Part shown: positions 3,804-17,116 of the stretch, piece after piece
Position numbering within the stretch: position 1 is the stretch's first letter
Layout of the letters: every line of letters starts with the position of its first letter
DNA from: a virus
Lineage: Duplodnaviria; Heunggongvirae; Uroviricota; Caudoviricetes
Length of the DNA: 17,384 bases
Reading direction: 5' to 3' (one strand)
IMG/VR virus record: IMGVR_UViG_2778261639_000015
Coordinates: 1 to 17,384 of that record
Notes under the pieces: model-generated
What the model saw: only the letters and a program-made list of their open reading frames with translations
Told to the model about the DNA's origin: nothing
Database searches by the model: none
Made by a program: the position numbers and the translations under genes

Positions 3804-4661
3804 ATGCTGTTTGTGCTTATTCTAAGCAATCGGGCAGCATCATACGGGGCAATTATGGCCGCATTACCATACATGCAACTGTACATAGCTGATTACCTGG
3901 CTGACACCATGCATTTGTCAGCAGAGGAGCATGGTGCGTATTTGTTGCTGATGTTCAATTACTGGCAAACAGGAAAGCCAATACCTAAAAACAGGCTGGC
4001 AAAAATTGCCCGTCTGACTAACGAGCGATGGGCTGATGTTGAACCGTCCTTGCGGGAGTTTTTTTGCGATAACGGCGAGGAATGGGTGCATCTTCGGATT
4101 GAGGAAGATCTGGCATCAGTCAGGGAAAAATTAACCAAAAAATCAGCCGCAGGAAAAGCATCGGTTCAGGCCAGAAGAAGCAGAAAGGAAGCAGATGTTC
4201 AAACAAAACAAGAGAGAAATTTAACAGGTGTTCAAACAGATGTTGAAGTGGTGTTTGAACATGATGTCAACACAAAGGCAACTAATAAAGATACAGATAA
4301 AGATCTAAAAACAGATCCCCCCCTAAATCCCCCCCGGGGGAATCGAGGTGTCAAAAAGTTTGACCCTCTGGATATTGCTTTGCCGAACTGGATTTCTGTC
4401 TCGCTCTGGCGTGAGTGGGTTGAATTTCGCCAGGCATTGCGTAAACCGATTCGAACGGAGCAGGGCGCTAACGGGGCGATACGGGAGCTGGAAAAATTCC
4501 GCCAGCAGGGTTTTTCACCTGAGCAGGTGATTCGACACAGCATCGCCAATGAATACCAGGGCTTGTTCGCGCCAAAAGGTGTTCGACCTGAGACGTTACT
4601 CCGACAGGTTAACACCGTCTCGTTACCGGATAGTGCGATCCCGCCAGGCTTCAGGGGGTAA
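3804..4661 (+). CDS. ydaU: YdaU (285 aa), probable replication-initiation (O-like) protein
   Basis: ORF 3804..4661. No clear RBS at 3804; an alternative in-frame ATG at 3855 (MAALPYMQLY...) has a better GGGG-type RBS. Sits directly upstream of the DnaC-like loader. Confidence 0.75.
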   Translation: MLFVLILSNRAASYGAIMAALPYMQLYIADYLADTMHLSAEEHGAYLLLMFNYWQTGKPIPKNRLAKIARLTNERWADVEPSLREFFCDNGEEWVHLRIEEDLASVREKLTKKSAAGKASVQARRSRKEADVQTKQERNLTGVQTDVEVVFEHDVNTKATNKDTDKDLKTDPPLNPPRGNRGVKKFDPLDIALPNWISVSLWREWVEFRQALRKPIRTEQGANGAIRELEKFRQQGFSPEQVIRHSIANEYQGLFAPKGVRPETLLRQVNTVSLPDSAIPPGFRG

Positions 4662-4667
4662 CTGACC

Positions 4668-5414
4668 ATGAAAAATATTGCGGCAGGAGGCATTCTTGAA
4701 CGTATCCGCAGACTGGCCCCGCCACATGTAACCGCCCCATTCAAAACGGTAGCGGAGTGGCGCGAGTGGCAACTTTCCGAAGGCCAGAAACGTTGTGAGG
4801 AGATCAACCGTCAGAATCGTCAGTTGCGGGTGGAAAAAATTCTGAATCGCTCTGGCATCCAGCCATTGCACCGCAAATGCTCGTTTGCGAATTACCAGGT
4901 GCAGAACGACGGTCAGCGATACGCGTTGAACCAGGCGAAATCTATCGCTGATGAACTGATGACCGGGTGTACAAATTTTGCGTTCAGCGGAAAACCTGGT
5001 ACCGGAAAAAACCATCTGGCGGCGGCTATCGGGAATCGCCTGCTGAAAGATGGCCAGACAGTGATTGTGGTTACCGTGGCTGATGTCATGAGTGCTCTAC
5101 ACGCCAGCTATGACGACGGGCAATCAGGCGAAAAATTTTTGCGGGAACTGTGCCAAGTGGATCTGCTGGTTCTTGATGAAATTGGCATTCAGCGCGAGAC
5201 AAAAAACGAGCAGGTGGTGCTGCACCAGATTGTTGATCGCCGGACAGCGTCGATGCGCAGCGTGGGGATGCTGACAAACCTGAACTATGAGGCCATGAAA
5301 ACATTGCTCGGCGAGCGGATTATGGATCGCATGACCATGAACGGCGGGCGATGGGTGAATTTTAACTGGGAGAGCTGGCGTCCGAATGTCGTCCAGCCAG
5401 GAATTGCGAAGTGA
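4668..5414 (+). CDS. ydaV: YdaV (248 aa), DnaC-like replicative helicase loader
   Basis: ORF 4668..5414 with Walker [18 protein letters not shown] and Walker B LLVLDEIG; RBS AGGGGG upstream. Confidence 0.9.
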
Positions 5415-5436
5415 TTTTTACCGGGAGGAAATTTTA

Positions 5437-6198
5437 ATGGAAACCGTTTTTGATGCACTGAAAGCAATGGGAAAAGCCACGTCGGTAGAACTGGCTGCGC
5501 GACTTGATATCAGTCGTGAAGAAGTGCTGAACGAGCTGTGGGAACTTAAAAAGGCTGGCTTCGTTGATAAAAGCGTATACACCTGGCGTGTGGCTGATAA
5601 CAACGTTCAGCAGGAACAGCCAGAGCAGGCAGAACTGCCGGAAGAAACCACCACGGCAACAGTAGCGAAAATCTCAGAGTGCGATTTAACCGCGACGATT
5701 GAACAACGTGGCCCACAAACGGCGGATGAACTGGCTACGTTTTTCGGCACCACATCACGCAAAGTGGCTTCAACGCTGGCAATGGCAATCAGCAAAGGCC
5801 GTCTGATTCGCGTTAATCAGAACGGTAAATTTCGTTACTGCATGCCGGGCGATGATTTACCAGCAGAGCCGAAAGCTGCATCGGTAACGGAAACTGATGG
5901 TAAAACCTTTCCTCAGCCAGCCGGTGTTGCGTTACCAGTACAGGAAGCGGCAACACAGGAAGATATTAAAACAGAAACTGTGGCGGACATTGTGCAGTCG
6001 CTGCCATCGTTTACTGAAACGCGAGCTGATGACCTGATTTTGCCATCGCTGCATATGGCAAACCGCGAACTGCGTCGGGCGAAAAATCATGTCCAGAAGT
6101 GGGAGCGAGTCTGCGCCGCGCTGCGGGAGCTGAACAAGCACCGGGATATTGTTCGACAGATTGCTGATTCTTCCCGCCGTGTTGTATCGGAAAAGTGA
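5437..6198 (+). CDS. YdaW-like hypothetical protein (253 aa); probably the intact version of the gene that is a remnant in K-12
   Basis: ORF 5386..6198 trimmed to the ATG at 5437 ([13 protein letters not shown]...), with GGGAGG 7 nt upstream. Acidic, low-complexity middle region. Confidence 0.6.
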
Positions 6199-6213
6199 TT
6201 GCCGGAGGCGCTT

Positions 6214-6645
6214 ATGGCAAAAGTATTTACACAAGAAGAGCGGGAAAAAATTAAAGGGCAGGTTGTTGAGCTAGTACGCCGGAGTGGACGCGAGACGTTA
6301 CGACAACTGGAGGCCAAGACAGGTGCGACAAGATATCTGATGAGCGTTCTCGCCAGAGAGCTGGTTGCCAGTGGCGATGTATACAACTCTGGTTACGGGT
6401 TATTCCCGTCTGAACAGGCTCGTAAGGACTGGCAAAATGCCCGCAAAAAACTATCCAGGGCAAAGGTGAAGAAACCATCTGTGGTTGATCCGGACCTTAT
6501 CTGGTCATTACCAGACGGAGAAATACGCCGCTACGACAGGCGTCTGAACATAATCTGTCGCGAGTGCCGGAAGAGTGAAGTTATGCAGCGTGTGCTGGCG
6601 TTTTATCAGAATGGTTTTCGAGAGAGGCTTGGAGATCAGGGATGA
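6214..6645 (+). CDS. Hypothetical protein (143 aa), basic; function unknown
   Basis: ORF 6199..6645 trimmed to the ATG at 6214 (MAKVFTQEEREK...), with GGAGG upstream. Last gene before the AT-rich insertion. Confidence 0.5.
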   Translation: MAKVFTQEEREKIKGQVVELVRRSGRETLRQLEAKTGATRYLMSVLARELVASGDVYNSGYGLFPSEQARKDWQNARKKLSRAKVKKPSVVDPDLIWSLPDGEIRRYDRRLNIICRECRKSEVMQRVLAFYQNGFRERLGDQG

Positions 6646-6838
6646 ATAGAACGATGAAGGATGGAAGCTACATATTCTCGGTACTAAGATTTATTTTTCT
6701 GACACAAAATGACCATTTGGCGTTACATAATCCCAAAAAAACGTATCAAAAATCTCAAAATGCGTTACGATTAGAGAGTATTTTGATTCTGCGTGCTCAT
6801 TTTTTGATTGCTGTGGCTTTTTGTTGTGGGAGTGTTGA

Positions 6839-7993
6839 ATGGATTATTTATCAGAAGTGTTAAAAATCATTGAAGGTGCAACAAAGGCAAATGCTTCGAT
6901 GGCTAGTAATTATGCTGGGTTGCTGGCAGATAAGCTCGAACAAAAAGGGGAGGTCAAGCAAGCCAGAATGATAAGAGAAAGGTTGCTTAGAGCTCCCCAG
7001 GCGTTGGCAGGAGCTCAAAGGGCTGGAGGTGGGATATCTCTGGGCTCATTACCGGTAGATATTGATAGTCGACTCAACACTGTTGATGTCAGTTATCCTA
7101 AATTAGACAGTTCAGAGATTTTTCTGCCTGCAGCAATCAGTACCCGTGTTGAAGAGTTTATCACTAATGTTCAACGTTATGATGAGTTTGTTAAAGCTGA
7201 TGCAGCATTGCCGAGTCGTATGCTCGTGTATGGAAAGCCAGGAACAGGTAAGACTATGTTATCTAAGTACATCGCTACCCGCTTAGATTTTCCACTTCTT
7301 ACAGTGCGTTGCGATACTTTGATTAGTAGTTTATTGGGACAAACCAGCAAAAATCTTAGACAGGTTTTCGATTATGTAATGCAGAGGCCATCAGTGCTTT
7401 TTTTAGACGAATTTGATGCTTTAGCTGGAGCAAGAGGTAATGAGAGAGATATAGGTGAGCTTCAGCGAGTTGTCATTTCACTATTGCAGAATATGGATGC
7501 GGCATCAGAGGATACGGTAATTATTGCCTCAACTAACCATGAGCAACTTCTGGATCCTGCAATCTGGAGGCGATTTAGCTTCAGAATTCCAATGCCTCTG
7601 CCTGACATACATCAGAGAGAGTTAATTTGGAAAAATCGTTTAAAGAATATGATATGTAGCGATCTAGATTTAAGTGATTTATCAAGAAAATCGGAAGGAT
7701 TATCCGGAGCAATAATTGAACAGGTGAGCTTGGATGCACGTAGGGATGCAGTTATTGAAGGTGCAAGTGTGATAAATCACCATAAATTGTATAGGCGTTT
7801 GTATCTTGCTCAATCGCTTATGGAAGGTGTAAATTTAAGCACTTACGAAGATGAAATTCGTTGGTTACGTTCTAAAGATAAAAAATTATTTTCTATCAGA
7901 GTTCTTGCTAATTTGTACAAACTTACATCAAGAGTAATTTCAAACATTCTGAAGGAGTCAGGAGCATATGAGCAGAAGGGGTACACAGTTTAG
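6839..7993 (+). CDS. AAA+ ATPase (384 aa, classical clade) with ~125-aa N-terminal extension; first gene of a candidate defence pair
   Basis: Walker A GKPGTGKT (aa 132-139, nt 7232-7255), Walker B VLFLDE (aa 186-191), sensor-1 STN (aa 231-233), Arg in the second region of homology (GARG, aa 197-200). RBS GGGAG 6 nt upstream. AT-rich codon usage. Confidence 0.85.
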   Translation: MDYLSEVLKIIEGATKANASMASNYAGLLADKLEQKGEVKQARMIRERLLRAPQALAGAQRAGGGISLGSLPVDIDSRLNTVDVSYPKLDSSEIFLPAAISTRVEEFITNVQRYDEFVKADAALPSRMLVYGKPGTGKTMLSKYIATRLDFPLLTVRCDTLISSLLGQTSKNLRQVFDYVMQRPSVLFLDEFDALAGARGNERDIGELQRVVISLLQNMDAASEDTVIIASTNHEQLLDPAIWRRFSFRIPMPLPDIHQRELIWKNRLKNMICSDLDLSDLSRKSEGLSGAIIEQVSLDARRDAVIEGASVINHHKLYRRLYLAQSLMEGVNLSTYEDEIRWLRSKDKKLFSIRVLANLYKLTSRVISNILKESGAYEQKGYTV

Positions 7994-10232
7994 TAACGCA
8001 AAAGTTACAAACCCAATGTTAAGAATCCCTTTTTCCAGTAGTGACTTGGGTGCAATAGTAAACGCTGGCGGTGGGGCAAAGGTATTGGTTGATGTAACAG
8101 CCGAATATAGACAAGGGCTAGTAAGAAATTTAACAACCAGTAAACATTATTTAGAATCCAAACTTTCAGAGTACCCTGGAAGCTTGGGTACTTTGGTTTT
8201 CAAATTAAGAGACCAGGGAATAGCCAAAACGCATAGGCCGAACAAAATTGCTCAAGAGGCTGGATTGCAAAATGCCGGTCATGCCAAAATAGATGAAATG
8301 TTGGTTGCTGCTCATGCCGGCTGTTTTGACGTATTAGAGTCAGTCATTTTACATCGGAATATTAAAGCGATTTTGGCTAATCTAAGCGCGATTGAGCGCA
8401 TTGAACCTTGGGATGAGAATAGGAAGGTTCCAGGAGGCACTGATGGTTTGTTTGAATCATCAAACATCCTTGTACGACTATTTGAGTACACAGGTGAAGA
8501 TGCAACTTACAACAACTATGAAAACGTTATTTCTATATTAGAACAACACGGAGTTAAATATGATGAGATTAGACAAAAATGTGGTCTTCCCTTATTAAGG
8601 ATAATGGATTTATCCCCAAATGATAGATATATATTAGACATTCTCATTGATTACCCGGGTATAAGAACGTTAATTCCAGAACCAAAATATTCAGCATTCC
8701 CGGTTAGTGTAAGTGATTCTGTTGGCATTGAAACAAATAGCTTTCCCGTACCATCAGAAGAATTACCCATTGTTGCTGTATTTGACACTGGGGTAAGCCC
8801 CATCGCGGCAACAATTACTCCTTGGGTAGTGAGTAGGGAAACATACGTAATTCCTCCTGATACGAGTTATGAACATGGGACTATGGTGTCTTCATTGATA
8901 TCAGGCGCTCATTTTTTAAATGACAATCATCCATGGATTCCTGATACAAAATCTAAAATCCATGATGTTTGTGCTTTAGATGAAAATGGATCTTATATAT
9001 CAGATTTAATTCTGAGGCTAGCAGATGCTGTAAATAAAAGACCAGATATAAAAGTCTGGAATTTGTCTTTGGGAGGCGGACCATGTAATGAGCAGACGTT
9101 TAGTGATTTTGCGATGGAGTTAGATCGGCTCAGCGATAAATTTGGTATTTTGTTTGTAGTTGCTGCAGGTAATTATGTAGATGAACCTATACGTACATGG
9201 CCAAATCCTGATCCGCTTGGAGGTGCTGATTTAATTTCCTCTCCTGGAGAGTCAGTCCGAGCACTAACAGTTGGTTCAGTTTCTCATATGGAAGCTAATG
9301 ATGCTTTAAGTGAAATTGGAACACCGACACCATATACTCGTCGTGGCCCTGGGCCTGTATTTACTCCAAAGCCAGATATAATCCATGCTGGCGGTGGGGT
9401 TCATAGACCTTGGAATGTAGGAGCAAGCAGTTTAAAGGTCGTAGGGCCAGATAATAGGCTTTGCTCTAATTTTGGTACTAGTTTTGCTGCTCCAATTGTG
9501 GCAAGTTTAGCTGCGCATACATGGCAGAGAATAGCCACTAATTCAGACTTTAATGTTTCACCATCATTGATTAAAGCATTATTAATTCATTCCGCTCAAT
9601 TATCTTCTCCTGATTACTCGCCAAGTGAAAGACGCTATTTGGGAGCGGGAATTCCTAATGAAGTTATTGAGACCTTATATGATAGTGATGATAGGTTTAC
9701 TCTGATTTTCCAAACATTCTTGGTTCCTGGGGTGAGGTGGAGAAAGGAAAACTATCCCATACCATCGGCACTTATTCAAAATGGAAAATTTAAAGGTGAG
9801 ATTGTAATTACTGCTGCATATGCACCACCACTGAACCCTAATGCCGGCAGTGAATATGTTCGCGCGAACGTAGAGCTAAGTTTTGGCTTAATTGAGAATA
9901 ATACTATAAAAGGAAAAGTGCCTATGGAAGGAGAAAACGGTCAATCTGGATATGAGAGAGCTCAAATTGAGCATGGTGGAAAGTGGTCACCAGTAAAAAT
10001 TCATCGCAAGGCATTTAATAAAGGAATTACTTCGGGTAACTGGGCTCTTCAGGCTAAAACAACGTTGAGAGCGAATGAACCGGCCTTAATGGAGCCTTTA
10101 CCTGTAACTATTGTAGTAACTTTAAAATCATTAGATGGAAACACACAAGTTTATGCTGATGGCGTAAGAGCTTTAAATGCTAATAACTGGGCTCACTATC
10201 CATTGCCTGCTCGTGTGCCAGTTTCCGTATAA
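7968..10232 (+). CDS. Subtilisin-like S8 serine protease (754 aa), no signal peptide, with large N- and C-terminal non-catalytic domains
   Basis: Catalytic motifs in subtilase order: D273 in VAVFDTGV (nt 8784-8786), H303 in YEHGTMV (nt 8874-8876), oxyanion N365 in WNLSLGG, S505 in GTSFAAP (nt 9480-9482). The start overlaps the ATPase 3' end by 26 nt. Confidence 0.9.
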   Translation: MSRRGTQFSNAKVTNPMLRIPFSSSDLGAIVNAGGGAKVLVDVTAEYRQGLVRNLTTSKHYLESKLSEYPGSLGTLVFKLRDQGIAKTHRPNKIAQEAGLQNAGHAKIDEMLVAAHAGCFDVLESVILHRNIKAILANLSAIERIEPWDENRKVPGGTDGLFESSNILVRLFEYTGEDATYNNYENVISILEQHGVKYDEIRQKCGLPLLRIMDLSPNDRYILDILIDYPGIRTLIPEPKYSAFPVSVSDSVGIETNSFPVPSEELPIVAVFDTGVSPIAATITPWVVSRETYVIPPDTSYEHGTMVSSLISGAHFLNDNHPWIPDTKSKIHDVCALDENGSYISDLILRLADAVNKRPDIKVWNLSLGGGPCNEQTFSDFAMELDRLSDKFGILFVVAAGNYVDEPIRTWPNPDPLGGADLISSPGESVRALTVGSVSHMEANDALSEIGTPTPYTRRGPGPVFTPKPDIIHAGGGVHRPWNVGASSLKVVGPDNRLCSNFGTSFAAPIVASLAAHTWQRIATNSDFNVSPSLIKALLIHSAQLSSPDYSPSERRYLGAGIPNEVIETLYDSDDRFTLIFQTFLVPGVRWRKENYPIPSALIQNGKFKGEIVITAAYAPPLNPNAGSEYVRANVELSFGLIENNTIKGKVPMEGENGQSGYERAQIEHGGKWSPVKIHRKAFNKGITSGNWALQAKTTLRANEPALMEPLPVTIVVTLKSLDGNTQVYADGVRALNANNWAHYPLPARVPVSV

Positions 10233-10245
10233 CAACTATATAAAT

Positions 10246-10275
10246 CAAACCCGCTGTAGCGGGTTTGATTTATTT
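10246..10275 (+). terminator. Rho-independent terminator after the protease gene
   Basis: Stem AAACCCGC (10247-10254), loop TGTA, stem GCGGGTTT (10259-10266), followed by a T-rich tail (gatttatttgtg). Confidence 0.6.
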
Positions 10276-10648
10276 GTGGGTGTGTTTTATAAAAATACCG
10301 CCCATACACAACAAAATACAAAAAGTATTACAGATAAAAAAGGAGCGTAATGTGCAGATTTGTTGTTTTCCATATTTACTCACCTTAATATGATTAATCC
10401 TGGTAAGATTGTTATTTCAGCGGTTTTCAAATGAGATATTATGCTAATCTGGCAGATTTGCATAACATTAAAATTTAATTTGTCTAACCGCTTTTAATAA
10501 TAAGCGTTGTATTTTTATCCCAGCAATCTATTGTTTGATTTTTATTCCATCAATGTGGGGGCTTTACACTGGAACCAGTTTATTTATACTTTATACGTCA
10601 GCCTGAACAACTGGCATCTGCTGCACTGCGCCATCGAGAGATTGAGAA

Positions 10649-12531: not shown

Positions 12532-13121
12532 GGCTGGTTTATTGTATGCCAAATGATTATTAAAAAGGTTGTGTTAATAACAAAATCCGAAATAATATGC
12601 CTGCATATTTTTATCTTGCTTATATTCTGCATATTGTGCATAGCAGGCTCATCCCTGCAATCAAAACTGTATGATGAGTATTTTTTGTTTTCCTTTTTTC
12701 CAGTCATCTGATGATGACCTGCTTCTTTTTAATCCGGATCGACATCAGTTTTTTAAGATAATTCCTGCGAGTTATATGCATAAATGCCACAAACTCCGCA
12801 TTTTATGTGGTTGGGAGTTGCCGGGCGCGCAGTGAGTTTGCTAAGAAAACTCCTGCATGGTGAATCCCCCTGTGCGGTGGGGTGATACCATTAACCTTTT
12901 CTGTCGCCGACAGGTATCACGAACATTTTGTTCACCGGGAGGCACCCGGCACCATGCACTTCAATAGATTCTCTCCACATTATGGATATTCTTTCAGAAT
13001 ATCCCACGCAGACTTTGTGTAAATGTTAACAAATGTGCGTTTTATTTGATCTGATTCGCTGTTTGAGCGTCCAAAACAACGGTATATATAATCCTTTACT
13101 ATATGACATATGTGAGGAAAA

Positions 13122-15521: not shown

Positions 15522-15658
15522 AATCTTAACTACAATATGATTCATTTTGATGATTGTTTCATAAGGAACAGTGAAGTAAGATCTAAGAGGAGTTAAATTT
15601 TATACAGTATAATCATAATATTGCAGCAAGGTGGTTATAATTGAAAGAATATTTAGAT

Positions 15659-17116
15659 ATGAATACATCTCATGTAAGAGTTGTTACTCATATGTGTGGG
15701 TTCCTGGTTTGGCTCTATAGTCTTTCAATGTTGCCACCAATGGTTGTAGCATTGTTTTATAAAGAAAAAAGCCTGTTCGTTTTCTTTATAACTTTCGTTA
15801 TATTTTTTTGCATTGGTGGCGGAGCGTGGTATACAACTAAGAAATCTGGCATTCAATTACGTACCCGTGATGGGTTTATTATAATTGTAATGTTTTGGAT
15901 TTTGTTTTCTGTTATTAGTGCATTCCCTTTATGGATTGACTCAGAACTTAATTTAACGTTCATTGATGCTCTGTTTGAAGGGGTTTCTGGAATAACAACA
16001 ACAGGAGCAACTGTAATTGATGATGTTAGTTCATTACCTCGGGCATATTTGTACTATCGGTCACAGTTAAATTTTATAGGTGGTTTAGGAGTTATTGTTC
16101 TGGCGGTTGCAGTATTGCCATTATTGGGTATTGGTGGTGCAAAGCTTTATCAGTCAGAAATGCCGGGGCCATTTAAGGATGACAAACTCACTCCCCGCCT
16201 GGCCGATACGTCACGGACACTGTGGATAACTTATTCTTTATTAGGTATTGCTTGTATTGTCTGTTATAGACTTGCAGGAATGCCTTTGTTTGATGCTATT
16301 TGTCACGGGATTTCCACAGTTTCGCTTGGTGGTTTCTCAACTCATAGCGAGAGTATCGGATATTTTAATAACTATTTGGTTGAGCTGGTGGCTGGTTCTT
16401 TTTCCCTGCTATCGGCTTTCAACTTCACTCTTTGGTATATTGTTATTAGCAGAAAAACGATAAAACCTTTAATCAGAGATATTGAACTTCGTTTCTTTCT
16501 GTTAATAGCCTTAGGGGTGATCATTGTTACCTCTTTCCAGGTCTGGCATATAGGTATGTATGACTTGCATGGAAGTTTTATTCATTCGTTTTTTCTTGCC
16601 AGCTCCATGCTCACTGATAATGGTTTAGCTACGCAGGATTATGCAAACTGGCCCACGCACACGATAGTGTTTTTGCTGTTGTCAAGTTTCTTTGGGGGAT
16701 GTATCGGTTCAACCTGTGGTGGAATTAAGTCACTTCGATTTCTTATACTTTTCAAACAAAGCAAACACGAGATAAATCAACTTTCTCATCCCAGAGCGTT
16801 GTTAAGTGTAAATGTAGGAGGGAAGATAGTTACAGATCGTGTAATGAGGTCTGTATGGAGTTTCTTTTTTCTTTATACTCTCTTCACGGTGTTTTTTATA
16901 CTGGTGTTAAATGGTATGGGATATGATTTTCTTACATCATTTGCAACAGTGGCTGCATGTATTAATAATATGGGATTAGGTTTTGGGGCTACTGCATCGT
17001 CATTCGGAGTGCTTAATGACATTGCAAAATATTTAATGTGCATAGCTATGATTCTTGGTCGCCTTGAAATTTATCCTGTTATTATATTGTTTTCAGGTTT
17101 TTTTTGGCGCTCCTAA
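15659..17116 (+). CDS. trkG: TrkG K+ uptake protein (485 aa), prophage-borne paralog of TrkH
   Basis: ORF 15641..17116 trimmed to the ATG at 15659 (MNTSHVRVVTHMCGFLVWLYSL...). Multi-pass membrane protein with repeated glycine-containing selectivity-filter-like motifs; AT-rich. Matches K-12 TrkG length and sequence from memory. Confidence 0.95.
   Translation: MNTSHVRVVTHMCGFLVWLYSLSMLPPMVVALFYKEKSLFVFFITFVIFFCIGGGAWYTTKKSGIQLRTRDGFIIIVMFWILFSVISAFPLWIDSELNLTFIDALFEGVSGITTTGATVIDDVSSLPRAYLYYRSQLNFIGGLGVIVLAVAVLPLLGIGGAKLYQSEMPGPFKDDKLTPRLADTSRTLWITYSLLGIACIVCYRLAGMPLFDAICHGISTVSLGGFSTHSESIGYFNNYLVELVAGSFSLLSAFNFTLWYIVISRKTIKPLIRDIELRFFLLIALGVIIVTSFQVWHIGMYDLHGSFIHSFFLASSMLTDNGLATQDYANWPTHTIVFLLLSSFFGGCIGSTCGGIKSLRFLILFKQSKHEINQLSHPRALLSVNVGGKIVTDRVMRSVWSFFFLYTLFTVFFILVLNGMGYDFLTSFATVAACINNMGLGFGATASSFGVLNDIAKYLMCIAMILGRLEIYPVIILFSGFFWRS

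Follow-up and report, generated by a model that had tools for sequence, protein, structure and literature searches.

The S8 protease IetS of a prophage-borne IetAS system: a predicted cytoplasmic subtilase with a prodomain-like lobe and a C-terminal jelly-roll

Identification of the IetAS gene pair

The open reading frame at positions 7968–10232 of a Rac-like Escherichia coli prophage is, as judged by profile matches, ietS (iteS in the PGAP spelling), which codes for the protease of the two-gene IetAS system, its toxin/effector. The explanation that we favor overall, and regard as reasonably probable, is that IetS acts as the IetAS toxin/effector and is a latent, zymogen-like enzyme restrained by the AAA+ ATPase IetA. 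The window analyzed, 17,384 nucleotides in total, carries the gene for this 384-amino-acid ATPase (ietA or iteA; 6839–7993) directly upstream of ietS and in the same orientation; these genes and all features described below lie on the + strand, except for a hairpin to which no strand is assigned. IetAS is an already known system, validated both in anti-phage defense and in addiction, and the copy present here is routinely annotated and does not represent a new system. What is added here is the domain anatomy of IetS, derived from a confident AlphaFold2 model and from fold searches.

The ietS product matches the PADLOC profile IetS (PDLC02197; 4.1e-301) with residues 12–753 on profile positions 3–748 of 749, and it scores 1044 bits against the NCBIfam equivalog IteS_antiphage (NF042956; cut-off 900 bits). 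The ietA product is likewise matched over its full length by PADLOC IetA (PDLC02196; 8.9e-143), and it reaches 526.6 bits with the NCBIfam equivalog IteA_antiphage (NF042959; cut-off 510 bits). These matches bear out the proposal of an earlier note on this DNA that the protease is an intracellular, regulated effector partnered with an ATPase rather than a digestive enzyme; the note had not recognized the pair as an already named and annotated system. Both the D273/H303/S505 triad of IetS and the Walker A and B motifs of IetA are intact in this copy. A pair annotated as iteA/iteS with at least 99% identity is found in 78 of 5426 complete E. coli genomes, and the copy in prophage vB_EcoS-683R6 is 99.4% identical. 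The order ATPase-then-protease, with overlapping or abutting genes, recurs in copies that share only 25–27% protein identity. Since the three-part architecture of about 750 amino acids is preserved down to about 25% identity, the sequence comparisons mark ietS as a real, conserved gene and exclude a chance open reading frame.

In gene order, overlap, protein sizes (384 and 754 amino acids), catalytic triad and ATPase motifs, the pair agrees with IetAS as previously defined (Gao_Iet), from which it has no defining difference. The IetAS copies on Rhizobiaceae plasmids are about 27% identical to the one studied here, and their N-terminal protease region lacks the A-K-S-H-R-P loop described below, while the ietHAS variant possesses an additional SNF2 helicase that is missing here (PMC13069673).

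Genetic context and gene starts

IetAS forms a low-GC cargo cassette inserted between a ren-like gene and ninB; the GC content of the cassette (6646–10648) is 0.392, in comparison with 0.498 and 0.495 in the flanks. Its left edge, following the ren-like gene, is an AT-rich non-coding leader upstream of ietA (6646–6838), in which a consensus scan found no sigma-70-like site. The slot behind the ren-like gene is occupied by other accessory cargo in related phages. A GC-rich hairpin with a stem of 15 pairs (10240–10273), detected by a scan, begins 8 nucleotides past the ietS stop codon and resembles a terminator at the end of the two-gene unit.

As the earlier note had stated, an S8 protease is encoded at 7968–10232. 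The reading frame opens with an ATG and specifies 754 amino acids with a Peptidase_S8 domain and an invariant triad; the protein begins with MSRRGTQFSNAK, and the first 26 nucleotides of ietS overlap, by computation, the end of ietA. A GGAG/AGGAG sequence precedes the ATG at 7968. The ATG at 8016, used as the ietS start in phage record ON470595, was considered as well and is the inferior choice, because homologues with 68–84% identity to IetS share the length of 754 amino acids, carry substitutions within residues 1–16, and have Val at the position of M17.

Catalytic domain and cytoplasmic location

The only Pfam match in IetS is Peptidase_S8 (residues 268–544, E 4e-26), and the S8 catalytic domain as a whole spans residues 268–570 (8769–9677). 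The catalytic Asp273 (codon 8784–8786), His303 (8874–8876) and Ser505 (9480–9482), together with the oxyanion residue Asn402 (9171–9173), are invariant across 119 family members, and IetS with its intact triad is predicted to be an active enzyme.

Export signals were assessed by a Kyte-Doolittle hydropathy scan and a check for motifs. No signal peptide was detected in IetS (the highest mean over 19 residues is 1.21 within the first 60 residues and 1.48 anywhere in the protein), the hydropathy scan revealed no membrane segment, and neither a lipobox nor a twin-arginine motif was found. A hydrophobic N-terminal segment is absent from IetS and from 117 of its 119 homologues; across all 119, the median of the best 10-residue hydropathy within the first 45 residues is 0.84. 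IetS is thus predicted to be a cytoplasmic S8 subtilase, and the absence of a signal sequence surmised in the earlier note is upheld by the scan of IetS and by the values for its family.

The N-terminal flank

No Pfam family matches the N-terminal flank (about 265 residues) or the C-terminal flank (185–210 residues), even with the threshold relaxed to E ≤ 1, and the profile of the N-terminal region finds no match among the PDB sequences at E ≤ 10. The full-length structure prediction that the earlier note had proposed as a check yielded a confident AlphaFold2 model (pLDDT 92.7, pTM 0.93), whose best Foldseek matches are ProN-Tk-SP, KP-43, SubHal and unautoprocessed pro-subtilisins. When modelled alone, the N-terminal region gives fold matches to I9 inhibitors/propeptides and to ACT domains, the latter at 1% identity. 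The placement of a cap over the active site, and of residues 238–242 in the cleft, is judged from aligned lengths and from differences in secondary structure between the models.

The protein begins with a tail and arm delimited by the models and the family consensus (residues 1–44; 7968–8099), of which residues 1–7 are disordered and the remainder follows the conserved consensus P-I-x-x-V...D...GGG-x-x-K-x-F. Residues 11–30 reach a pLDDT of 94–95 in the full-length model versus 57–66 when the N-terminal region is modelled alone, and the strands 18–20 and 27–29 are present in the full-length model only; this conserved arm is therefore read as docking on the other domains of IetS. The arm leads into a first, family-specific lobe (residues 45–160; 8100–8447), in which a long helix precedes a beta-alpha-beta-beta-alpha-beta-like unit. 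No whole-region fold match was obtained for the extra arm (about 40 residues) and lobe (about 115 residues). The lobe contains the loop motif G-I-A-K-T-H-R-P (residues 84–91; 8217–8240; family consensus A-x-A-K-S-H-R-P), in which Lys87 is conserved in 119/119 sequences, Ala86 in 116, Pro91 in 114 and Arg90 in 110. This motif appears from the sequences to be clade-specific, because the copy from pRi1724 has LAPTHTP in its place.

A second lobe with a beta-alpha-beta-beta-alpha-beta unit (residues 166–242; 8463–8693) most likely corresponds to an I9-type prodomain, and in the IetS model this propeptide-like module lies directly N-terminal to the catalytic domain. The model aligns with unautoprocessed pro-subtilisin E over 318 of 355 residues but with mature-only subtilases over 232–250 residues, and because the pro-form aligns over the greater length, part of the N-terminal flank is read as an I9-type prodomain in its standard position. 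Of the two ferredoxin-like lobes, one is accordingly modelled where pro-subtilisin carries its uncleaved I9 prodomain, and residues 166–242 most likely constitute it. The strand at the end of residues 166–242 (240–242; EPKY241|S) folds only in the full-length model and is a candidate both for a substrate-like segment and for the autoprocessing site. The family consensus at residues 238–241 is hydrophobic-P-x-[YF], although the candidate P1 aromatic residue, Tyr241, is not retained in the Rhizobium pRi1724 copy. A variable linker with indels (residues 243–267; 8694–8768; pLDDT 72–76) connects the prodomain-like lobe to the catalytic domain.

The C-terminal domain

The C-terminal domain (residues 571–754; 9678–10229) is a beta-jelly-roll whose conservation comes close to that of the catalytic domain, with T615 and R701 invariant and E629, E663, K672, W673, P675, K677 and W692 near-invariant. 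KP-43 aligns with the IetS model over 369 of 434 residues at 2.9 Å and ProN-Tk-SP over 384 residues, so that in the model the beta-jelly-roll is placed as it is in KP-43 and Tk-SP. At 16–22% identity, this likeness is to be taken as a resemblance in fold and a shared placement that does not imply orthology. A furin/kexin P-domain was also considered for this region and rejected: with furin (4omc_A), the alignment covers 274 of 466 residues and is confined to the catalytic domain, and IetS has no match to Pfam P_proprotein.

The flanks are hence large and lack Pfam matches, as the earlier note had maintained, but they can no longer be described simply as domains of unknown function. The note had held that flanks amounting to a standard subtilase prodomain and P-domain would speak against its view of the protein; an I9-type lobe in place and a jelly-roll of the secreted type go part of the way in this direction, and the missing signal peptide, the extra arm and lobe, and the non-furin placement of the C-terminal domain do not.

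The ATPase IetA

IetA matches Pfam AAA (2.6e-30) and is, by its sequence, a classic-clade AAA+ ATPase with likeness to p97/Cdc48, PAN and FtsH; its nearest relatives among PDB sequences are p97/Cdc48. Its Walker A motif (GKPGTGKT, residue 132), pore loop-1 (SSLLG, residue 163; family form SS[L/Y]LG), Walker B motif (LDEFD, residue 189), sensor (STNH, residue 231) and arginine fingers (WRRF, residue 243) do not vary among 31 family members, some of which share only 34–36% identity. The C-terminus (about residues 340–375) shows an HTH-like pattern, for which the hints are all sub-threshold: HTH_22 matches the pRi1724 copy of IetA (2.2e-4), though not the copy studied here, and the family profile finds Aca1 (0.04) and CylR2 (0.2).

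Proposed mechanism of IetS control and competing explanations

In the homologous systems, toxicity resides in the protease, and the ATPase acts as the antitoxin (PMC13069673; 10.1101/2022.08.27.505566; PMC5006074; PMC8562856): IetS-type proteases are toxic when made alone, and IetA-type ATPases neutralize this toxicity, as reported for pTiC58, SGI1, Mycoplasma and ietHAS. IetAS came to notice first as a toxin-antitoxin pair of A. tumefaciens pTiC58, and its anti-phage role was described afterwards (PMC13069673); a homologous pair of this kind is sgiAT of SGI1 (PMC5006074), and the Mycoplasma protease is lethal without its ATPase (PMC8562856). The activity of the protease is needed for defense, and in the related ietHAS system cloning was unsuccessful with a mutated ietA (PMC13069673). 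IetAS copies from E. coli and B. cereus protect against phages (PMC13069673; 10.1101/2022.08.27.505566). The system acts by abortive infection, for which a single phage protein can suffice as the trigger, SPbeta yosG being an example (10.1101/2022.08.27.505566). The mechanism "remains unknown" in the words of a 2026 paper (PMC13069673).

We suggest that IetS is most likely a latent cytoplasmic, zymogen-like protease that is restrained by ATP-dependent IetA and released upon a phage trigger. The enzyme would be produced in a prodomain-capped form, with the segment around Tyr241 lying in the substrate cleft as the likely site of self-cleavage. IetA may remodel or thread IetS at the expense of ATP, possibly from the disordered N-terminal tip, and this action would either prevent the maturation of IetS or inactivate the matured enzyme. 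A phage trigger would then divert or block IetA, or stabilize active IetS, and the freed protease could cleave essential cell or phage proteins, with the infection stopped and the cell lost. A capped zymogen seems to be at odds with the toxicity of IetS expressed alone, unless the enzyme is self-activating. A special form of this scheme, which we consider improbable, would make IetA an "executioner" unfoldase: once IetS has matured spontaneously and lost its prodomain, IetA would thread it from the disordered N-terminus. Since subtilases depend on the prodomain for folding, the unfolded enzyme could not regain its structure, and every round of unfolding would be final; if a phage protein occupied or blocked IetA, mature IetS would accumulate and kill the cell. 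The prodomain-like module, the candidate Tyr241 site, the conserved pore loops of IetA and the disordered tip of IetS all allow for such a scheme, which, if true, would represent a new protein-antitoxin logic, in which a kinetically trapped toxin is unfolded irreversibly at the expense of ATP.

The two proteins might instead constitute a single ATP-dependent proteolytic machine in the manner of FtsH, Lon, Clp or the proteasome, in which an IetA hexamer recognizes and unfolds specific phage or host proteins and passes them on to IetS, and in which IetS without IetA is toxic only through being unregulated and promiscuous. The closeness of IetA to the proteolysis-coupled ATPases p97/Cdc48, PAN and FtsH, its conserved pore-loop and arginine-finger motifs, the translational coupling of the genes through their overlap, and the strongly conserved C-terminal domain and N-terminal arm of IetS, which could serve as docking surfaces, are all in keeping with this possibility. 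It is nevertheless unlikely: the literature has IetA opposing, not enabling, the toxicity of IetS, and the model shows the protease as a compact monomer that brings along a prodomain-like cap; its nearest structures are those of monomeric secreted subtilases, and no feature was seen that would form a ring or chamber, as is typical of AAA+-coupled peptidases. Slightly less likely again is a role of the flanks as a sensor, an idea from the earlier note that is compatible with our preferred explanation. Here, the binding of a phage protein or small molecule to the ACT/ferredoxin-like N-terminal lobe with its K87 loop, or to the jelly-roll, would release the prodomain-like cap, with IetA providing background neutralization only; ferredoxin-like folds are ubiquitous, however, the ACT match has the very low identity given above, the K87 motif is missing from the pRi1724 clade, and nothing in the evidence points to a particular ligand or partner.

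That the pair serves here chiefly as an addiction module, stabilizing the prophage through post-segregational killing with phage defense as a secondary trait, is doubtful in our view. It is true that the homologues from pTiC58 and SGI1 were first described as toxin-antitoxin pairs that stabilize a plasmid or island (PMC13069673; PMC5006074), that the pair is a low-GC cargo cassette on a mobile element, and that a possible C-terminal HTH in IetA would suit an autoregulating antitoxin; the published phage protection and the other accessory cargo found in the same slot of related phages argue against it. Both roles share one molecular mechanism, and this alternative concerns the biology of the pair and not the identity of the protein. 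We find it hardly conceivable that IetS belongs to the ordinary secreted subtilases of the kexin, Tk-SP or KP-43 type, made as a pro-enzyme whose signal peptide was missed through a wrong start. The prodomain-like module and the jelly-roll do resemble those of secreted subtilases, but the hydrophobic N-terminal segment is wanting throughout nearly the entire family, IetS has a cytoplasmic AAA+ ATPase as its obligate partner, the furin P-domain does not co-align, and homologues are toxic inside the cell (PMC5006074; PMC8562856). An upstream extension of IetS with a signal peptide is not possible, because the reading frame overlaps ietA and a good Shine-Dalgarno sequence stands at its start.

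The anatomy of IetS now comprises a docking arm, a lysine loop that is invariant within its clade, a prodomain-like cap in the pro-subtilisin position, a candidate site of self-cleavage and a jelly-roll like that of KP-43, and it suggests that the standard kit of a secreted subtilase can make up a cytoplasmic immune protease. It also raises the questions of whether IetS is a zymogen, whether it is cut at Tyr241, whether IetA threads it, and which surface receives the phage trigger.

Comparison with related proteases and ATPase-controlled systems

SgiAT from Salmonella Genomic Island 1 and Mycoplasma TA132/133 share with the pair studied here the two-gene architecture with a protease toxin and an ATPase antitoxin, and the proteins of the Mycoplasma AAA-ATPase/subtilisin pair (757 and 353 amino acids) are similar in size to IetS and IetA. 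Both systems were studied as modules for stabilization or as kill switches, and the studies report no phage data.

The secreted enzymes Tk-SP (3afg), KP-43 (1wmd) and SubHal (5fax) combine an N-terminal propeptide with a C-terminal beta-jelly-roll. IetS, 16–22% identical to them, differs by its lack of a signal peptide, its extra N-terminal arm and ferredoxin-like lobe (about 160 residues), its obligate AAA+ partner, and the absence of Pfam matches to their accessory-domain families. Classical subtilases mature after secretion. The prodomains of pro-subtilisin E (3whi), pro-Tk-subtilisin (2e1p) and PCSK9, as well as POIA1 (1v5i_B), belong to I9, to which IetS has no match at the sequence level in Pfam. 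The germination subtilases of clostridia (CspB, 4i0w; CspC, 6mw4; CspA, 9pr9) act in spores, lack an AAA+ partner and form a different sequence family. The ISP of the Bacillus type, an enzyme of about 320 amino acids, has a short inhibitory N-terminal extension and neither prodomain nor C-terminal domain, in contrast to the 754 amino acids and large folded flanks of IetS; an assignment of IetS to the ISPs was rejected, the structures 7xr8_A and 4zoq_I aligning over the catalytic core only (245–255 residues).

In TRIP13/Pch2-HORMA control of CBASS, an AAA+ ATPase likewise holds an immune effector pathway in the off state at the cost of ATP, and IetA has weak PADLOC matches to TRIP13 (2.4e-16). 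This likeness is an analogy only: IetA is far closer to p97/Cdc48/PAN, a HORMA protein is missing, and the partner under control is a protease.

Identity and family of the protease

The open reading frame at 7968-10232 and its upstream neighbour at 6839-7993, which encodes 384 aa, are, judged by their sequences, the two components of an IetAS system, and the identity of the pair is near-certain. Full-length PADLOC matches were obtained for both proteins (4.1e-301 for IetS and 8.9e-143 for IetA), and both score above the cut-offs of their NCBIfam equivalogs (IteS, 1044 against 900; IteA, 526.6 against 510). The two genes overlap by 26 nt. Of 5426 complete E. coli genomes, 78 carry this pair on the chromosome at an identity of at least 99%, annotated as iteA/iteS; the system is thus already known, and this copy of the gene is an ordinary one. 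The proposal in the earlier note of an intracellular, regulated effector working with an ATPase was right in spirit, but it missed that the system has a name and is annotated.

An exhaustive profile-free search gave 1839 cluster representatives with a threshold of E<=1e-3 and 329 with one of E<=1e-30; among the best 150, the majority have a length of 740-790 aa and align end to end. Conservation was assessed by aligning 119 full-length members with identities down to 24%. The residues invariant in all of them are D273, H303, N402 and S505 of the catalytic site, together with K87 (N region) and T615 and R701 (C region). Column conservation averages 0.50 in the S8 domain, 0.45 in the C region and 0.34 in the N region. 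Lys87 (119/119) lies in a nearly invariant loop, A-x-A-K-S/T-H-R-P (aa 84-91; + strand, 8217-8240). The copy on the Rhizobium plasmid pRi1724, which consists of an ATPase of 374 aa and a protease of 752 aa, has an N region still homologous to that of IetS (hhalign probability 96%, E 2.4e-9) and carries LAPTHTP in place of this loop; the lysine motif is therefore clade-specific.

Reading frame and cellular location

The ietS gene (+ strand, 754 aa) is a genuine open reading frame whose ATG at 7968 follows a Shine-Dalgarno sequence (GGAG/AGGAG). In the phage record ON470595 the S8 peptidase coding sequence (9517 in the phage locus) begins at the internal Met17 (window position 8016) and is 16 codons short. 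Homologues that are 68-84% identical share the length of 754 aa and carry amino-acid substitutions inside residues 1-16, and Met17 is not conserved among them; the start at 7968 chosen in the earlier note is therefore the better one. The ATG at 8016 also lacks a Shine-Dalgarno sequence, and it was rejected as the start.

Pfam recognises Peptidase_S8 alone (aa 268-544), and a threshold as loose as E<=1 brings no match in the flanks. A Kyte-Doolittle hydropathy scan found no signal peptide or membrane segment (the 19-residue mean peaks at 1.21 within the first 60 aa and at 1.48 over the whole protein), and neither a lipobox nor a Tat motif is present. Hydropathy gives the same picture across the 119 homologues, which bears out the earlier statement that the protein has no signal sequence; a real reading frame, flanks without Pfam matches and the absence of an export segment by hydropathy together confirm the observation from which the analysis started. 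That IetS might be a secreted pro-enzyme was rejected as scarcely conceivable.

Structural anatomy of the flanks

AlphaFold2, run on the 119-sequence alignment, predicts IetS as a single compact model (mean pLDDT 92.7, pTM 0.93). When this model was compared with the PDB by Foldseek, the best match was ProN-Tk-SP (577-607 aligned columns), followed by KP-43 and SubHal (491-495) and then by unautoprocessed pro-subtilisins (439-470); mature subtilisins aligned over only about 310-325 columns. Judged by the order of secondary-structure elements in the model, the N region comprises two lobes (both + strand): lobe 1 (aa 45-160), which bears the K87 loop, and lobe 2 (aa 166-237), a clean beta-alpha-beta-beta-alpha-beta arrangement. 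Three strands, 240-242 and, in the arm, 18-20 and 27-29, form in the full-length model only and are absent from the model of the isolated N region, where the confidence of aa 11-30 drops to 57-66, compared with 94-95 in the complete protein. Because these elements need the full-length context, they are predicted to pack on the catalytic or C-terminal domains.

Sequence comparison failed to identify the flanks: no PDB sequence matched the N-region profile at E<=10, whole-protein matches in the PDB are confined to part of the catalytic domain, and the PDB sequence search found no solved structure of a relative beyond generic subtilases. IetS is a cytoplasmic subtilase with intact catalytic residues; in the model, its prodomain-like cap, catalytic domain and jelly-roll constitute the standard kit of a secreted subtilase, to which a family-specific arm and lobe have been added. 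The earlier description of the flanks as being of unknown function holds in part, since much of them is a standard prodomain-like module and a secreted-subtilase jelly-roll; in the same measure, the alternative that they are simply a standard prodomain and P-domain is borne out in part. What is left without counterpart is the first ~160 aa of IetS and the logic of its control by IetA.

The partner ATPase IetA

IetA is a classic-clade AAA+ ATPase whose closest relatives are the p97/Cdc48 domains, PAN and FtsH. In 31 members, some only 34-36% identical, the Walker A (GKPGTGKT), Walker B (LDEFD), sensor (TNH) and arginine-finger (WRRF) motifs are invariant, as is pore loop-1 (SS-[L/Y]-LG), which aligns with KLAG/MWFG of p97. 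This motif set is compatible with a substrate-threading motor, and IetS is obligately paired with an AAA+ ATPase of this threading type.

A conserved linear motif, L-P-V-D-x-x-S-R-L (aa 71-79; 7049-7075), stands amid the helical N-terminal region; P72, D74, S77 and L79 are invariant, also in the copies of 34-36% identity, and the motif may serve for docking or as a pseudo-substrate peptide. The C-terminal ~45 residues show a helix-turn-helix-like pattern with the consensus FSLRxLAxLYxxSTRxIxNILKE (region 7781-7990, aa ~315-384; 2450-2638 in the pRi1724 locus), for which all matches are sub-threshold: the pRi1724 copy matches several Pfam helix-turn-helix families with values of 2e-4 to 1e-2, the copy studied here matches none, and the family profile hits Aca1 (0.04) and CylR2 (0.2). 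Such a C-terminus would fit an autoregulating antitoxin. ON470595 names IetA 'cell division protein FtsH' and places a 73-aa 'kinase (fragment)' over the ietA leader and start (~6642-6863); these two entries and the short S8 coding sequence all look like annotation artefacts.

A possible mechanism of IetAS

IetAS was first reported as a plasmid-stabilising toxin-antitoxin pair in which the protease is the toxin and the ATPase the antitoxin (PMC13069673), and homologous pairs of SGI1 (PMC5006074) and Mycoplasma (PMC8562856) act as toxin-antitoxin modules as well. Its anti-phage mechanism 'remains unknown', defence requires protease activity, and for the ietHAS variant the cloning of a mutated ietA failed (PMC13069673). 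The system acts by abortive infection, with the SPbeta gene yosG triggering the B. cereus copy (10.1101/2022.08.27.505566); the copy of E. coli ECOR52 has been tested with phages (10.1101/2022.08.21.504612). A search of the literature turned up no work on the structure or mechanism of IetAS.

Across the homologues, then, the protease alone is lethal and is neutralised by the ATPase, defence needs the protease, and one phage protein can trigger toxicity. The best overall explanation, which we consider reasonably probable, is that IetS is a zymogen-like protease restrained by ATP-dependent IetA and released by the phage. IetS would be a latent enzyme prone to self-activation, and IetA would spend ATP on preventing or reversing this step, with the disordered tip of IetS as a plausible entry point. 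Infection might divert or block IetA, or stabilise active IetS, whose proteolysis would then abort the infection. These steps are much less certain than the identity of the pair.

With its threading-type motifs, IetA might instead form a single ATP-dependent protease machine with IetS, a reading that we regard as unlikely. Direct sensing by the IetS flanks is compatible with restraint by IetA and release by the phage; we hold it to be rather improbable. Addiction agrees with the plasmid-stabilising origin of the system, but as the main role of the pair it is very doubtful.

Genomic setting

The window belongs to a Rac-like lambdoid prophage of E. coli; over bases 6500-10600 it shares 99.4% identity with Escherichia phage vB_EcoS-683R6. 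The IetAS cassette (6646-10648), flanked by a ren-like gene and ninB, is low in G+C (39%) compared with the DNA on either side (about 50%). A consensus scan found no promoter site for ietA in 6646-6838. A strong hairpin lies 3' of the ietS stop codon, and between it and ninB extend ~375 bp of AT-rich non-coding DNA (10274-10648). This stretch, in which promoter-like sites lie at 10367-10394 and at 10563-10590, probably represents the junction of the cargo cassette on its right-hand side.

In related lambdoid phages this slot is occupied by different genes, namely methyltransferases, hok/mok-like genes and IS elements. In two of them, HannyBb (4161-5854) and PhiR42_1 (4134-7470), the cargo directly after the same ren-like gene includes, between the two phages, a methyltransferase, a MokW-like host-killing gene and a transposase; with its differing cargo, this position is a variable accessory-gene slot. 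A distant IetAS pair on a metagenomic contig (1232-5655; IetS 27% identical, ATPase of 430 aa with a longer N-terminus) adjoins an IS1-like transposase and a staphylococcal-nuclease-domain gene, neighbours that are compatible with mobility of the cassette.

Elsewhere in the window, the gammaproteobacterial small RNA STnc100 (Rfam) matches 12825-13011 on the + strand, downstream of the Q antiterminator gene (86.6 bits against a gathering score of 47; E 1e-17). A 491-aa reading frame with a TTG start (15641-17116, + strand) matches phrog_1916 over its full length; by the annotation of a related phage it encodes the potassium-uptake protein TrkG, the known trkG cargo of the Rac prophage.
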